Source of the DNA: a virus
Lineage: Duplodnaviria > Heunggongvirae > Uroviricota > Caudoviricetes
Strand: one strand, 5' to 3'
Virus record (IMG/VR): IMGVR_UViG_3300037400_003880
DNA: 29,267 nucleotides
Part shown: in pieces, positions 4,215-29,267 of the stretch
Position numbering within the stretch: position 1 is the first letter of the stretch
Layout of the letters: every line of letters begins with the position of its first letter
Made by a program: the position numbers and the translations under genes
Notes under the pieces: model-generated
What the model saw: only the letters and a program-made list of their open reading frames with translations
Told to the model about the DNA's origin: nothing
The model's database searches: none

Positions 4215-4535
4215 ATGGCAAAACAGGTATTTAAATGGGGACAGTGGAATGAGCTTGCGAAGGCAGTGGGTGTAAATATGCCCAAGCCGCAAGAGACCAA
4301 TAAGGCTAAGTTTAAGGTTCAGCAGGAGAAGTTTGCACGCTGCCGTAAGTGCGGTGGTCAGATGCATTATCTCAAGGGAACCAATGTTCTTATTTGTGAA
4401 AATGATATCGAGGTTGAAAAGACTTTCGAGAATGAAGATGGTACAACTACTGTTAAGACAGTAAAGCAGACTTGTGGTAATATCAATCTTGTTGATAAGG
4501 AATACCAGTCTTATGCCCGTTTTCTGTTTGAATAA
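4215..4535 (+). CDS. Zn-ribbon protein
   Basis: AAGGAG RBS; CRKCGG...ICEN...TCGN. Confidence 0.7.
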   Translation: MAKQVFKWGQWNELAKAVGVNMPKPQETNKAKFKVQQEKFARCRKCGGQMHYLKGTNVLICENDIEVEKTFENEDGTTTVKTVKQTCGNINLVDKEYQSYARFLFE

Positions 4536-11867: not shown

Positions 11868-11943
11868 GGGAAGATGGCGTACACGGTTGGCGCGCCGCAC
11901 TGAAAATGCGAGAACGCAGGTTCAACTCCTGCTCTTCCCACCA
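11868..11943 (+). tRNA. trnF-GAA: tRNA-Phe(GAA)
   Basis: GGGAAGA/TCTTCCC acceptor; loop CT-GAA-AA; CCA. Confidence 0.88.
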
Positions 11944-24530: not shown

Positions 24531-25217
24531 ATGATTTAGTTCGTTTATAGCATAACGATCCAAAAGGAAGGCGATTTCCTGAGCTTTTTGAAGAGTTTTG
24601 ACAAGAAAATAATGATAAATGACAAGGTTATTGACAAAAATAACAAATCAGGCGTGATTCATGGTGAAAACAGTGTGGAAACTATAGTATTTATAGAGAA
24701 ATTAAGTGCGGATGACTTCAAAAGTATGAGAGAACTGTGGAAAAAGATAACAATTGAACGGGAACTATCGTTGGAATACGTGAGAGATGGATGGGTTTGG
24801 TTGCTACCGTTTCAGCAGCTCCACAGCGGTCCAGATCGACCATACAATCAGATAATTAAGCACAATGGCTTACCGACCACGCGCTCCGCCAAGAAGAAGG
24901 ACAAGCCAGATCTTAGGCTAAGAAGGGCAGAAGCCAGAGACTATGGTAGTGTTGAAGAGGGGGACGATCCAGATAGCTCAGCTCAAACAATTCTTGAGGA
25001 GCTACTCAAACCAGAGTGGCTAGGATGGTGGCATCGCCGCTTCATTTATCTTTACCATTATTATGGGAACCATTGCAGTTGTTATAAGGAACGCTTTATT
25101 TATGACGCTTTTATTGCTACTGTTTGGGAGATCTCTAAAGTTATAGGTGTGCCGCCCCTTGATATTTGTGAGATTTATCGCGCGGCGCGCCCCGTTTATA
25201 ATAAACTTTATATGTAA
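24531..25217 (+). CDS. hypothetical protein with in-frame TAG at codon 3
   Basis: AGGAGG RBS; ATG ATT TAG TTC... is in frame with ORF 24588..25217. Confidence 0.7.
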
Positions 25218-25221
25218 GAAA

Positions 25222-25258
25222 TGGGCAGTTTCCTTTGTTGGAGCTGCCCAATTTTTAT
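25222..25258 (+). terminator. rho-independent terminator
   Basis: TGGGCAGTTTCC/GGAGCTGCCCA + T tract. Confidence 0.75.
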
Positions 25259-25609
25259 TGTTGTTTTCGGTTTCATTTGATTTCCAATTCTTGTACTAAA
25301 AAAGGGGATTAGAAGATTTAATCGAAAGGCTTAGTAGAGGGATCTTCAGTACCGGATTTTGCCTCTTCTTAACTTTTGTTTTTGTGCGGGCGCCGGCGCG
25401 CCTAAAATAGGGGTCACTTTAAATAGGAGTTCTTTTTAACTTAGAGGGGTCTTTTCTTTTTAAAAATCGGGGCGGAGAATAGAGGGGATTTTTATAGGGG
25501 ATCCTGCTTGGAAAAAGCTTTGAGATTTTGAGCTAAAAATGGGGGTTAGAATAATCCTTCCAAAACCTATAGTGGCTTTGAGTTCGGTACCGGATTTTGC
25601 CTCTTGCAA

Positions 25610-25820
25610 TTGCAGCTCACGGAATCCCTGAGCAGCTCCGAAATAGGGTTTTTTTCTTTAAGTAGGAATTGCAGCTCACAGCTCCAAACTTTTCCAGCTC
25701 ACCCTGATTTAGCAGCTCACGACCGAGATCGTTTTTTCTTCAAGTAGGAATTGCAGCTCACGGCTCTAAGAGTTCCAGCTCACATAGGCACCGAGATCAC
25801 GGAGCTGTTCCAGCTCATGC
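25610..25820 (+). repeat. cluster of co-oriented (G/C)CAGCTC motifs
   Basis: about 9 copies. Confidence 0.75.
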
Positions 25821-25934
25821 ATTTGTTTTTACTGGATCGCGACTGCCGAGGAGATCTTCGTGACAATGCCGCGGCGTCACCTCGATCCGATCCTCCGTTC
25901 ACAGAATGTTCACAATTTGTTTACAGAAAATCCA

Positions 25935-25963
25935 TTGACTTTTCCCGAAAAATATGGTATAAT
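25935..25963 (+). promoter_or_regulatory. sigmaA-type promoter with upstream TTHACA repeats
   Basis: TTGACT-N17-TATAAT; repeats at 25898, 25909, 25920. Confidence 0.85.
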
Positions 25964-26071
25964 ATATATGTAAGATAAAGGAAAGGGCTGGAGCCAAGAG
26001 GTGCGGGAAAGGCGCACTGAGGTACCGCCCGCCGTTCACAAAATGTTCACAAAAAGTTCAGAGTTATTTAA

Positions 26072-26100
26072 TTGACTTTTTGCGAAAAATGTGGTATAAT
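26072..26100 (+). promoter_or_regulatory. sigmaA-type promoter with upstream TTHACA repeats
   Basis: TTGACT-N17-TATAAT; repeats at 26035, 26046, 26057. Confidence 0.85.
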
Positions 26101-26208
26101 ATATATGTAAGATAAAGAGAGAAGCGGTAAGCAAGAGGTGCGTGCTGGCTTCCTCCACGAGATTAGTCCTCTCGTGAACAGGCGTAATACGCCAGATAGG
26201 AGAACACT

Positions 26209-26664
26209 ATGGCAGCTATGACTATGAAGCAGTTCCTGACCGCAGTTACCGAGATGACCGAGAAGCCGGAGCTGGTCGAGTTCGCTAAGGCTCAGCTGGA
26301 GAAGCTGGACGAGAAGAACGCCAAGCGCCGCACTACCCTGACCTCTGCCCAGAAGGCGACCATTCAGGTAGTCACCGCTTACGCTTCCACTCTGGCAAAG
26401 GGTGAGGTCGTAACCTCTGCTATCGTCTCCACCGCACTGGGCGTCACCTCTCAGCGTGCGACCGCACTGCTGAAGAAGGGTGTAGAGCTGGGCTTCTTCA
26501 CCGAGACCGAGCCTGTGAAGGGTAAGTCTGGTAAGGTGAAGGGCTACGCTCGCACCGAAGCCGGCAACCACCCCGTAGAGACCGAGGAGGTCGAGGATGG
26601 CGAAGCCGAGGAGCTGGGTGAGTTCGAGGACGAGCTGACCGACGAGGAGCTGTCCGAGGACTGA
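26209..26664 (+). CDS. winged-HTH-like protein, paralog family A
   Basis: AGGAG RBS; VTSQRATALLKKGV...PVKGKSGKVKGY; acidic tail. Confidence 0.8.
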   Translation: MAAMTMKQFLTAVTEMTEKPELVEFAKAQLEKLDEKNAKRRTTLTSAQKATIQVVTAYASTLAKGEVVTSAIVSTALGVTSQRATALLKKGVELGFFTETEPVKGKSGKVKGYARTEAGNHPVETEEVEDGEAEELGEFEDELTDEELSED

Positions 26665-26686
26665 CGTTTCACATGAAACACAATGG

Positions 26687-26719
26687 GAGCTGGTGCCCTG
26701 ACGGGTGCCAGCTCTTTTT
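26687..26719 (+). terminator. rho-independent terminator
   Basis: GAGCTGGTGCCC/GGGTGCCAGCTC + T5. Confidence 0.8.
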
Positions 26720-26913
26720 GCAGCTCACTTTAGCGCTTTAAAGCGGTGATCTCCCAGCTCGCATGATGCAGCTCATACGCAATCGCAGCTCACGGATGCA
26801 GCTCACGGGAGCCGATCTAAGGGCGGGATCGACGATGCAGCTCGCCGATGGTTAGACGCAGGCAACAATACCTACTATTCCGATCTGAATGGTAGGAGTT
26901 AGCCATTGCTAAC

Positions 26914-27316
26914 CGAACGTTTGTTCGCCCGAACGTTTGTTCGCCTACTAAACCTACTAAACCTATAGGTTTTAGGACTTTAAAGCGCTAAAGCGCAGAT
27001 CCGCCCCTTATTATTATACCACATAAATATGAACGTGGTATGAACTGGATGTAAACAATTTGTTAAGAACATATGTTCTTCGGCATTATAACCAAAAAAC
27101 TTTCAACTTGTTGAAAAATTTTGTGCAAGTTGTATGAAGATCGGTTTTCAACATTCTCCACCAAATTTTGTGCAGTATGCCTAAACCTAGTAAACCTATA
27201 GGAATAGTAGGAATTGCCCGGGCCCGATCCGGACTCGAACATATGTTCGCCTGCCCGGGTCCGCCCGAACGTTTGTTCTCCCCGCCTGGATCCGGTCCGT
27301 CCAGAACGTTTGTTCT
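26914..27316. promoter_or_regulatory. cluster of six GAAC-N4-GTTC (Firmicute LexA/Cheo box-like) sites
   Basis: sites at 26914, 26930, 27067, 27236, 27266, 27303. Confidence 0.7.
27013..27066 (-). promoter_or_regulatory. extended -10 promoter with four 11-bp-phased TTHAYA repeats and no -35
   Basis: minus strand: TTAACA-N5-TTTACA-N5-TTCATA-N5-TTCATA...TGGTATAAT. Confidence 0.65.
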
Positions 27317-27443
27317 TTTTGCCCGGGCCCCAGATCAGCACTTTAAAGTGCTAAAGTGTCCGTGGACACTTTCGTGGACTAAAGTGGGGTGTCCTCGATC
27401 CGCGTACACTTTAGCGATTTAAAGCATTAAAGTGTGAGGTCGG

Positions 27444-27475
27444 AAAAATGTCCGCCAGAGGCGGACACTTTTTTT
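27444..27475. terminator. bidirectional terminator
   Basis: A5-TGTCCGCC-aga-GGCGGACA-CT7. Confidence 0.8.
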
Positions 27476-27896
27476 AGTCCTCGACTGCATCGGGATCCGC
27501 GTCAGCATCCGCGTCCGCGGGTGCATCCGCATCCGCGAACTTGTAAGCCTTGACCTTGCCCGACTTGCCCTTGACGGGCTCGACCTCTACGAGGACGCCC
27601 GCCTTGACACCCGCGCGGAGGACGGCGGTAGACTTCTGCGAGGTCACGCCCAGCAGACCCGCCACAGACGCGGAGGTGAGAACCTCGCCCGCCTTGACAG
27701 CCGCGCGGAGGGTGGCGAGGGTGGCGGTGTTAGCCGCAGAAGCCTTCTCCTGCGCCTTAGCGCGGCGGGCGGCGTTCTTGCCATCGGTCTTGTTGAGCGC
27801 GGCGAGCGCGTAGGCGCGGATGTCCTCGTCAGTGGTGGTGTTGAGGACTGCGGTCAGGAACTCGGTGTTAGTCTTGATAGTCATGGTGTTCTCCAT
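27474..27896 (-). CDS. winged-HTH-like protein, paralog family A (start may be 27884)
   Basis: VTSQKSTAVLRAGV...PVKGKSGKVKAY; acidic tail. Confidence 0.8.
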   Translation of the reverse strand: MENTMTIKTNTEFLTAVLNTTTDEDIRAYALAALNKTDGKNAARRAKAQEKASAANTATLATLRAAVKAGEVLTSASVAGLLGVTSQKSTAVLRAGVKAGVLVEVEPVKGKSGKVKAYKFADADAPADADADADPDAVED

Positions 27897-27959
27897 TCTC
27901 CATGCCTTGCATGGTAGGCGTTTTTCGGGTTTTGGGCTTTTCCCTCACCCTGTACTATT

Positions 27960-27988
27960 ATTATACCACACTTTTCGGAGTTTGTCAA
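27960..27988 (-). promoter_or_regulatory. sigmaA-type promoter
   Basis: minus strand TTGACA-N17-TATAAT. Confidence 0.85.
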
Positions 27989-28234
27989 CTGGCATTTTGC
28001 ACAAACTTTTGTGTGGATTTTTGTGAGGATTGAACGGATGGTACTGGCGGTTCTGGAATTCACGCAATATGGGGATTTTTCCCCCTTGCTACCCTCCTAC
28101 GGTCGCATCCGTCCTATAACCGAACAACCCTCTGCCCGACAGCGGTAACGAGCTACATATTCCGCGATTTATTGGGGAAAATCGTAACCCTGTAAGCGTT
28201 TCGGGGTTTTTCTCCCCCTCAACCTTACATATAT

Positions 28235-28263
28235 ATTATACCATATTTTTTGGAAAAAGTCAA
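28235..28263 (-). promoter_or_regulatory. sigmaA-type promoter
   Basis: minus strand TTGACT-N17-TATAAT, same cassette as the plus-strand copies. Confidence 0.85.
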
Positions 28264-28464
28264 ATTAGCTGCTGCGTTTTTGCCCATATATCGCCATAAA
28301 AAGCCCCAAAAATTTCGGCACCTTGTACACTATTTTCAACAACTGGGATCCTCTTTTGTGCATTTTGCTGGTGTCTTTGTACGGCGTACACTTTCATGGA
28401 CTAAAGTAAACTGTTCTCCTGTGGCGGACAGCGATAGTTAGACTATCACTTTGATAGTTTAACT

Positions 28465-28660
28465 CGCTAAAGCGCCAGATCCTCTTCTCCTTTAGCGCTT
28501 TAAAGCGCTAAAGATCTGCCCGGTCCATTTGTACATATTGACGAGAACGTATGTTCCGATCCGCCCGGGCACTTTCACACTTTAAAGCATTAAAGCAATC
28601 CAGATCTTTTGTACTTTAAAGCACTAAAGCGATCCAGATCTTTCGCGCACTAAAGCGCGA
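28465..28660. repeat. cluster of CTTTAAAG-N(3)-TAAAG / TTTAGCGCTAAAG palindromic motifs
   Basis: about 5 copies here; further copies at about 26729, 26978, 27341, 27409. Confidence 0.75.
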
Positions 28661-28685
28661 AAAACGGCGATTATCCGCCGTTTTT
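28660..28685. terminator. bidirectional terminator overlapping the stop of 28671..29033
   Basis: AAAAACGGCG-attatc-CGCCGTTTTT. Confidence 0.75.
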
Positions 28686-29033
28686 CACCTCCTTCAAAGC
28701 CTCCCGAATATCGTCCATGTTTAGCGCTAAAGTCACACGCTCCGACTTGGTGCAAACGTCATTCCAGTTTTTGACAGTCATGCCAATAATCACGATTGCA
28801 TCCACAAGAAAACCGTCCTTGTTAGTGACCTGACCCACACAAACAACCACGCTATTTCCCGTGATTTTTACGGGCGACCCCTCCTCCTTGGCAACCTCGA
28901 TGGTTTTGGGGATAAAGAGGACGTTTTCCTCTCCATACTCTACCACCATAGCGCTATAGATAACCTTCCCGACCTCTACACGGATGGCGTTCTTGCGTGC
29001 GGTATCGTTTTTCATCTCGTCAAGATTCATCAT
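28671..29033 (-). CDS. hypothetical protein, paralog family B
   Basis: AAGGAGG RBS; EYGEENV, KDGFLVD...MTVK. Confidence 0.75.
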   Translation of the reverse strand: MMNLDEMKNDTARKNAIRVEVGKVIYSAMVVEYGEENVLFIPKTIEVAKEEGSPVKITGNSVVVCVGQVTNKDGFLVDAIVIIGMTVKNWNDVCTKSERVTLALNMDDIREALKEVKNGG

Positions 29034-29076
29034 ACTTGTATCCTCCTTATTGGTTCTATGTCCTTACTACTCTTAT

Positions 29077-29105
29077 ATTATACTACATTTTTCGGGATTT
29101 GTCAA
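29077..29105 (-). promoter_or_regulatory. sigmaA-type promoter
   Basis: minus strand TTGACA-N17-TATAAT. Confidence 0.8.
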
Positions 29106-29267
29106 ATTGAACCCCTTGAAAAACTTCGATATATGGACGAAAAAGGATCCGAAATCTTTGTGACATTTGCACAAACGGCGGCTGCGCACAGATCGATTGG
29201 TTGTGCATCTTGCACAAATTTTTTGACCGAGTTTTTGGCTAAGGATCGGCATTTTTCTGCTACCCTG

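Follow-up and report, generated by a model that had tools for sequence, protein, structure and literature searches.

The stretch of DNA analysed here, which we call the window, comprises 29,267 nucleotides of the IMG/VR virus record IMGVR_UViG_3300037400_003880 (Caudoviricetes), a large phage that encodes 15 tRNAs, a tmRNA, an Rnl1-type ligase and a BrxL-like ATPase. Its subject is a set of seven copies of the palindrome GAAC-N4-GTTC, here called boxes, which resemble the operator of the Firmicute SOS repressor LexA. The region from 26720 to 27445 (720 bp) is a gap between the terminators of two convergent and paralogous winged-helix genes. To the right of this gap small minus-strand genes follow, each with its own TTGACA-17-TGnTATAAT promoter, GGAGG ribosome site and terminator, so that by its signals the region reads as an early-gene-cassette zone in Firmicute style. 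The boxes, genes and terminators are (aa, amino acids):

26914-26943, no strand assigned: boxes A1 (26914-26927) and A2 (26930-26943), both CGAACGTTTGTTCG, a 16-nt tandem duplication
27066-27079, no strand assigned: box B, AGAACATATGTTCT
27236-27316, no strand assigned: boxes C1 (27236-27249, CGAACATATGTTCG), C2 (27266-27279) and C3 (27303-27316), 30 and 37 nt apart
28544-28557, no strand assigned: box D, AGAACGTATGTTCC, directly 3' of a TTGACG hexamer and followed by GATCCGCCCGGGC
26209-26664, plus strand: gene of a 151-aa winged-helix protein, paralogue of the gene at 27474-27896 (41% identity)
26687-26719, plus strand: terminator of the 151-aa gene, a hairpin plus T-run
27449-27467, no strand assigned: terminator hairpin of the convergent 140-aa gene
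27474-27896, minus strand: gene of a 140-aa winged-helix protein, with a strong promoter (27988->27960)

The initial annotation had described these boxes as a dense LexA array in non-coding DNA, and its description of the DNA is borne out. All seven boxes are present, spanning 26914-28557, six of them lie inside 403 bp, and neither translation table 11 nor a reading of TAG as glutamine gives a credible open reading frame (ORF) across 26720-27445; a hidden gene under the array was rejected on the same two counts and because indels in relatives break the frames. The GAAC and GTTC arms are perfect in 7/7 sites, and in three of them the match extends to CGAAC...GTTCG on both sides. Nine matches occur in the whole window against 0.37 +/- 0.60 expected (100 dinucleotide-preserving shuffles, none of which reached nine), and the two outside the zone, at 4378 in a coding sequence and at 11912 in a tRNA-Phe gene, have GC-containing spacers that are not LexA-like. 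GAAC is moreover the sole enriched 4-N4-4 palindrome in 26700-28700, with seven copies against three for the runner-up. Two local tandem duplications, of a 16-nt unit present twice and of a 30-37-nt unit present three times, account for five of the seven boxes; the number of independent box loci is thus about four, still far above chance. In the larger of these units a CCCGGG palindrome stands 6-7 nt from each of boxes C1-C3 and belongs to the duplicated DNA.

The assignment of the motif to Firmicute LexA (DinR) likewise agrees with its finer preferences, since the operator known as the Cheo or SOS box has the same 14-bp palindrome, C/G flank, AT-rich spacer and GTTY degeneracy. The one-mismatch sites number 39, of which 20 have the form AAAC/GTTT, with the outermost G changed to A, against about two expected from block shuffles; all other one-mismatch variants stay at background. 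The classical Gram-positive LexA consensus CGAACRNRYGTTYC itself allows this GTTY degeneracy. In 62 boxes pooled from eight non-redundant related loci the flank is C in 56% and A in 35%, the spacer follows A/g-T/a-A/t-T/c, and the consensus is (C/A)GAAC-ATAT-GTTC(G/T), that is CGAACATATGTTCG. This matches the consensus of Bacillus subtilis LexA, which PMC4551915 quotes as CGAAC(N)4GTTCG. The style of the TTGACA-17-TGnTATAAT promoters and GGAGG ribosome sites points to a Firmicute host. We take host LexA to be the reader of the boxes, with a confidence clearly above even and short of firm.

Conservation, which the initial annotation had left as a question, is observed: boxes recur in relatives that were found by protein homology alone. 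The close relatives are metagenomic contigs, apparently from rumen studies according to their sample names, that were retrieved via homologues of the 140-aa protein. L003, whose protein is 97% identical, has all seven boxes in place (7 against 0.06 expected) with different spacers at some of them, L006 has three perfect boxes plus one AAAC variant, L001 has two boxes plus a degenerate third after losing box B, box D and two C units by deletions, and L005 has no perfect box and two AAAC variants only. Taken by position, A1/A2 are kept in L003, L006 and L133, with one copy degenerate in L001 and one AAAC variant in L005; L001 and L005 lack half of box B owing to a deletion of about 100 bp, and a one-mismatch homologue of this box occupies the same module of L004; three C units are found in L003 and one each in L001, L005 and L006; and box D is kept in L003 and L008. 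L004 (59% identical protein) carries a three-box array, with distances of 35-36 nt, directly downstream of the gene and shares the TTGACG-box junction of box D. Over the non-coding gap the relatives differ by indels of about 16, 30-37 and 100 bp, and gaps are more than twice as frequent in box columns as elsewhere in the alignment, a reflection of the gain and loss of units. In a five-way alignment changes relative to the window amount to 4/120 in box arms, 7/64 in box spacers and 125/2488 in other non-coding DNA, which is weak evidence for constraint on the arms among close relatives.

More distant relatives carry the box as well. G001 (IMGVR_UViG_3300031867_000005; 178,685 bp, rated complete), which was found via its BrxL-like protein (82% identical), has 11 perfect boxes in the whole record, eight of them in 173,279-176,243, and none of the reversed-pattern control. 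When a LexA-like spacer is required and up to one mismatch is allowed, the final 12.6 kb contain about 23 of its 26 distinct sites. The block is syntenic with that of the window, 26-29 kb downstream of the BrxL-like gene, boxes also follow the orthologue of the 140-aa gene, and the densest part is an 89-nt tandem unit with about three boxes each and no gene. Three boxes in 1.1 kb are found in L133 (0.017 expected), eight, all intergenic, in the 108.8-kb contig L134/L135 (about 0.2 expected) and three in L136 (0.055 expected). Searching IMG/VR for three boxes separated by gaps of 14-30 nt returned triple arrays in at least 120 stretches, against 21 for the composition-matched control palindrome CAAG-N4-CTTG; among the matches listed many are unrelated tandem repeats and about 40 have three or more LexA-like boxes. 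Distant kin among the matches listed are L065, with a winged-helix homologue (31-35% identical), L016, with a homologue of a 120-aa protein, and L107, with an Rnl homologue. L013-L132 include, among the matches listed, many unrelated viral contigs of 23-69% GC with short arrays of 3-13 boxes (for example L127, L085, L043, L072 and L032/L041); others, with GC-rich spacers (GAACGGCGGTTCCGGT and similar), represent a different 33-nt tandem repeat. No relative was found in INPHARED by DNA or protein, no match in IMG/VR with the 140-aa protein or with an exact 30-mer, and a scan of a genome collection gave only a BrxL homologue from Desulfospira.

The placement of the boxes in these relatives follows a common architecture, most regular in L117, in which 13 boxes in 6 kb stand essentially one per spacer, 9-15 nt after the T-run of a terminator. 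A GC-rich palindrome with a CCGG core lies 3-12 nt from 12/13 of them, TTGTTAAAAAAATAAC-like A/T-rich DNA and then a TTGACA-17-TATAAT promoter follow, and in 8/13 cases the box is 60-93 nt before the -35 element. The same architecture is seen in L016, in L127, where four boxes are stacked 26-116 nt upstream of one -35 element, and in G001 (L010:7280), where the distances from a box are 14 nt to the preceding terminator and 87 nt to the following -35 element. CCGG-core palindromes (GGCCCGGGCC, CGGCCGGCCG, GACCGGTC), seen in L117 7300-13400 and at 27217, 27254, 27322 and 28564 of the window, accompany nearly all boxes of GC-poor genomes at 3-12 nt, and are absent from the AT-richest relatives G001, L127 and L016. 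Beyond the 14-bp word the box-bearing DNA of the relatives, of 26-58% GC, cannot be aligned. The box is kept over deep divergence and is nonetheless dispensable.

In the window the boxes are, as the initial annotation stated, mostly not tied to promoters of coding sequences; only box B touches a promoter-like site. Two putative leftward signals are found near it:

27085-27114, minus strand: putative promoter-like site TCAACA-18-TATAAT, 10/12 consensus match, reading leftward over box B
27013-27023, minus strand: putative extended -10 TGTGG-TATAAT with no -35 element, the same 15-mer as in the strong promoter at 27956-27970

Box B covers about +1 to +14 of the first, weak site (27114->27085) and about -60 to -73 of the second (27023->27013); both read into non-coding DNA, the second toward A1/A2. 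Box D is preceded by the TTGACG hexamer without a -10 element, the remaining five boxes have no promoter nearby, and promoter-upstream modules without promoters adjoin boxes at 27098-27180.

Because it carries seven perfect boxes and relatives keep the box word between early genes, the phage probably reads or manipulates the damage alarm of its host. We propose that the boxes are LexA-type operators, likely of the LexA of a Clostridia-like Firmicute host, and that they act in cis in the early-cassette zone as optional elements sensitive to the SOS response, a reading whose probability we put at about even. The boxes would be one word in a modular grammar of spacers between small, individually promoted early-type genes in this clade of large rumen and gut phages. 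The ancestral unit of this grammar, as relatives show it, would consist of a terminator, a box 9-25 nt later, an A/T-rich upstream region and a TTGACA-17-TATAAT promoter, with a CCGG-core palindrome after the box in GC-richer lineages. In the window, loss of cassettes and local tandem duplication would have piled such units into the gene-free 720-bp gap between convergent genes. In an undamaged cell LexA dimers on the sites would damp or insulate transcription of the early zone: they could occlude the DNA upstream of promoters (at box B, the start site itself) or form a roadblock after terminators. Cleavage of LexA upon DNA damage of the host, or upon activation of RecA by phage replication, would release this brake; as a by-product, replicating phage DNA would titrate some of the LexA.

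Several observations weigh against this proposal. Part of the window array is recent tandem duplication, for which selection is not required, and among close relatives few changes underlie the contrast between arms and spacers. Boxes are dispensable: L137-L139 have none, L138 and L139 keep the other motif families without them, in L138 even with iterons and with adjacent CCCGGG sites that have no box between, and L005 retains two one-mismatch sites. Box B alone lies on a core promoter, a weak one that leads into no ORF and is missing from L001 and L005 through deletion, so that overlap with the core promoter of a regulated gene, as shown by LexA operators, is not seen in the window. Most boxes are 26-116 nt upstream of a -35 element or have no promoter near them, whereas LexA classically represses from other positions. 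The Firmicute assignment of the host rests on promoter and ribosome-site style.

In G001 no tyrosine or serine recombinase/integrase and no ParB were found, and a six-frame search of the complete record gave no S24 peptidase. With none of these in G001, the clade has the appearance of virulent phages, which makes a switch for prophage induction, of the type of GIL01 or of the antirepressors, unlikely.

An alternative already raised by the initial annotation is that a DNA-binding protein of the phage reads the palindrome, either an early shut-off repressor or a flanking winged-helix protein; we regard this as unlikely. What keeps it alive is that two paralogous winged-helix genes flank the array, that their homologues accompany boxes in L004, L065, L133-L136 and G001, that G001 encodes a 96-aa protein with a LexA_DNA_bind-like match, and that boxes travel with other phage-specific motifs. 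The proposal is weakened by the divergence of the winged-helix protein to 36% identity in G001 and 31-35% in L065 while the box is unchanged, by L138/L139, in which the protein (49% identical) and the other motifs occur without boxes, and by the lack of an S24 protein in G001. The family is also generic in fold and sequence: for the 140-aa family a long helix and a generic winged helix are predicted (predicted local distance difference test, pLDDT, 87), and the best matches, at weak E-values, are CadC, Z-alpha, MarR and CodY. As LexA-like proteins the flanking winged-helix proteins were rejected, given that Pfam, a PDB sequence search and Foldseek gave no LexA match. The only LexA_DNA_bind-like match of G001 is this 96-aa protein, for which it is the best Pfam match, at 17.5 bits and hence below the cut-off of 23.7; as a phage-encoded LexA it was rejected, being sub-threshold, equally MarR-like and unrelated to the flanking family. 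This 96-aa winged-helix protein is encoded at 74,915-75,205 on the minus strand (L012 1416-1706) in the replication/recombination module and has an acidic tail. Finally, the GTTY degeneracy and the C/G flanks reproduce the preferences of LexA itself.

The function favoured by the initial annotation was a LexA sponge, in which the boxes have no local target and the replicating genome soaks up LexA, derepressing SOS without damage; a converse form, in which the sites hold LexA in a DNA-bound form that resists RecA-driven cleavage, is possible. The dense array does not fit best as a sponge, and we consider this reading unlikely as well. It draws on the number of sites (seven here, about 23 in G001), which are mostly away from core promoters and, being consensus sites, are probably of high affinity, on the gene-free 89-nt tandem block of G001, and on the virulent appearance of the phage, which makes a prophage-induction switch unnecessary. 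A sink, however, needs number and not position, whereas relatives such as L117, L135, L127 and G001 carry boxes whose place within single spacers is fixed, close relatives manage with 0-2 sites, boxes are lost or reduced in L001, L005 and L138, and the array of the window is partly a local tandem expansion. Text searches of the literature returned no paper on distributed or tandem LexA-box arrays in lytic phages and no description of a LexA sink. Because single boxes hold a fixed place in spacers, the proposed local cis role fits better than a pure sink, with which it could coexist.

A wider variant, which we hold to be unlikely, is that distributed consensus LexA operators (seven to more than 20 per genome) give large virulent phages of gut and rumen Firmicutes a genome-wide handle on the SOS response of the host. 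As a sink, replicated sites might strip LexA from the chromosome and switch SOS on without DNA damage; alternatively, LexA as a borrowed silencer might keep a phage that lacks a repressor, an integrase and a partition system quiet in undamaged cells, as a carrier state. If this is true, the triple-array stretches of IMG/VR would mark a widespread and undescribed phage strategy.

It is improbable that the zone is an origin, a packaging site or another nucleoprotein site built with CAGCTCAC iterons, or that the boxes are repeats of the repetitive extragenic palindrome (REP) type, selfish or neutral, whose likeness to LexA operators is incidental. The boxes of the window adjoin iterons, and those of G001 are interleaved with CAGCTCAC iterons in the 89-nt tandem unit, just upstream of an exonuclease-like gene; furthermore, the zone is a point of convergent transcription where the cumulative GC skew plateaus and then turns down, and indel dynamics are strong. 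Boxes and iterons are separable, however, as a second iteron cluster at 25613-25783 is without boxes and L117 has boxes without iterons. A mobile repeat is unlikely when only a 14-bp word is conserved in such unalignable DNA, and the agreement in flank, spacer and GTTY preferences would not be expected of an incidental likeness. Two further readings were rejected, namely restriction sites (GAAC-N4-GTTC is a subset of GAANNNNTTC), which phages avoid and do not accumulate and which leave the flank and spacer preferences unexplained, and a res site for a recombinase at the three-box array, for which no recombinase was found and which does not account for boxes that occur singly.

At least four further repeated words share the DNA of the box zone, namely the iterons, a CTTTAAAG-YRC-TAAAG element, CTAAACCTATAGG palindromes and TTTCAAC-N17-TTTTGTGCA promoter-upstream modules. 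Two of the repeat families have mapped positions:

26721-26845, plus strand: five co-oriented iterons, (G/C)CAGCTC(A/G)C, next to boxes A1/A2
27217-27327, no strand assigned: CCCGGG palindromes accompanying boxes, starting at 27217, 27254 and 27322, with another at 28564

Iterons occur in co-oriented clusters of 5-10 in the window, in G001 (L010 9836-10262) and in the box-less L138 (1613-1740), and the flanking winged-helix proteins are candidate readers of them. The CTTTAAAG-YRC-TAAAG element is present in about nine copies (26728-26745, 26971-26995, 27334-27434 and 28450-28657) beside terminators, often followed by AGATC/GATC; L001, L065, L135 and L138 carry it too, and G001 has one or two copies. 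Between its two winged-helix genes G001 carries, at 174,449-174,939 (L010 8450-8940), about 15 copies of a AATAAGGGG-containing unit with periods of 37 and 57 nt, for which the window has no counterpart. The G001 record starts and ends in a 60-nt tandem repeat with ACTAAACCTATAGGAATAGTAGG (L010 12490-12686; L011 1-160), the same word as at 27181-27215 of the window, and after the repeat comes about 1 kb of AT-rich DNA of low complexity (L011 550-1500); the record ends may be a physical genome end or an assembly break.

Two stretches near the array may be transcribed without encoding protein. On the minus strand at 28010-28228 a strong promoter (28263->28235) reads about 220 nt without an ORF, near-identical in L001 and L003, whose modest fold (-69.4 kcal/mol, z = -2.0) has no Rfam match; it is a possible small RNA. 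TTCACA-like direct repeats with a period of about 11 nt lie at 25898-25925 and 26035-26062, just upstream of two tandem TTGACT-17-TATAAT promoters that precede the 151-aa gene, the first of which drives a short leader-like transcript without an ORF. No known RNA family was found in 25200-29267 at E <= 0.1.

Compared with known systems, the boxes differ first from the operators of the host. In the host, one to three SOS operators per gene are usual, placed so as to overlap the promoter under repression, whereas most of the phage sites lie after terminators, 26-116 nt upstream of -35 elements or in gene-free DNA, with seven to about 23 sites per phage. Cluster A mycobacteriophages have stoperators, asymmetric sites for the repressor of the phage itself, and the promoter-early stem-loop (PeSL) cassettes of T4-type phages combine promoter and terminator and contain no host-repressor site. 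With both the boxes share many copies of a short site in short spacers of small-gene arrays and a link to array plasticity; they are palindromic, unlike stoperators, and the complete relative G001 showed no S24- or LexA-type repressor. LexA-controlled antirepressors are known from coliphage 186 (Tum) and the Gifsy phages. Sar of phi3T/SPbeta is a further LexA-controlled antirepressor (bioRxiv 10.1101/2025.11.27.690993). In these systems, too, an SOS box in phage DNA is tied to LexA cleavage, a tie that is predicted here; they are temperate and use one box for one small gene, whereas no antirepressor-like gene lies downstream of the boxes.

The tectivirus GIL01, in which LexA acts with gp7 at dinBox1/dinBox1b (PMC4551915; PMC11511902), is also a Firmicute phage with sites of the same LexA consensus, half-sites and weak sites taking part too. 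It differs as a temperate linear-plasmid prophage with few sites, at P1/P3, in which LexA is the lysogeny repressor, whereas in the present clade no integrase, ParB or S24 repressor was found (G001). LexA co-option is further reviewed for CTX and others (PMC9437464), and in the systems that these sources describe it concerns temperate elements with one or few promoter-proximal boxes (PMC4551915; PMC11511902; bioRxiv 10.1101/2025.11.27.690993; PMC9437464). The virulent Bacillus phage phi29, with multiple Spo0A boxes and Spo0J sites as summarised in PMC9437464, likewise carries several sites for a global regulator of its Firmicute host, and in that summary its early programme follows the state of the host; regulator and signal are different, the sites are associated with promoters and origins, and their function was shown experimentally. 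In phages of Alphaproteobacteria, CtrA sites have been linked to 'lytic deferment' (PMC9437464), again a case in which comparative genomics points to conserved motifs of a host regulator within the regulatory DNA of phages; the present case is set apart by host phylum and by the spread over spacers and tandem arrays in place of promoters of specific genes. The finding belongs with the known co-option of host regulators by phages, as in GIL01 and phi29.

New is the LexA-type operator as a recurrent building block of early-gene spacers in large, lytic-looking phages. If LexA does not bind them, the boxes would still represent a well-defined operator with many natural variants. If LexA does bind, the boxes would provide a simple host-phylum marker for uncultivated phages, and lytic phages of anaerobic gut and rumen Firmicutes would sense or disturb the DNA-damage state of their hosts, which would bear on competition between phages and prophages, on SOS-triggered defences, and on how SOS-inducing antibiotics reshape phage activity in the gut.

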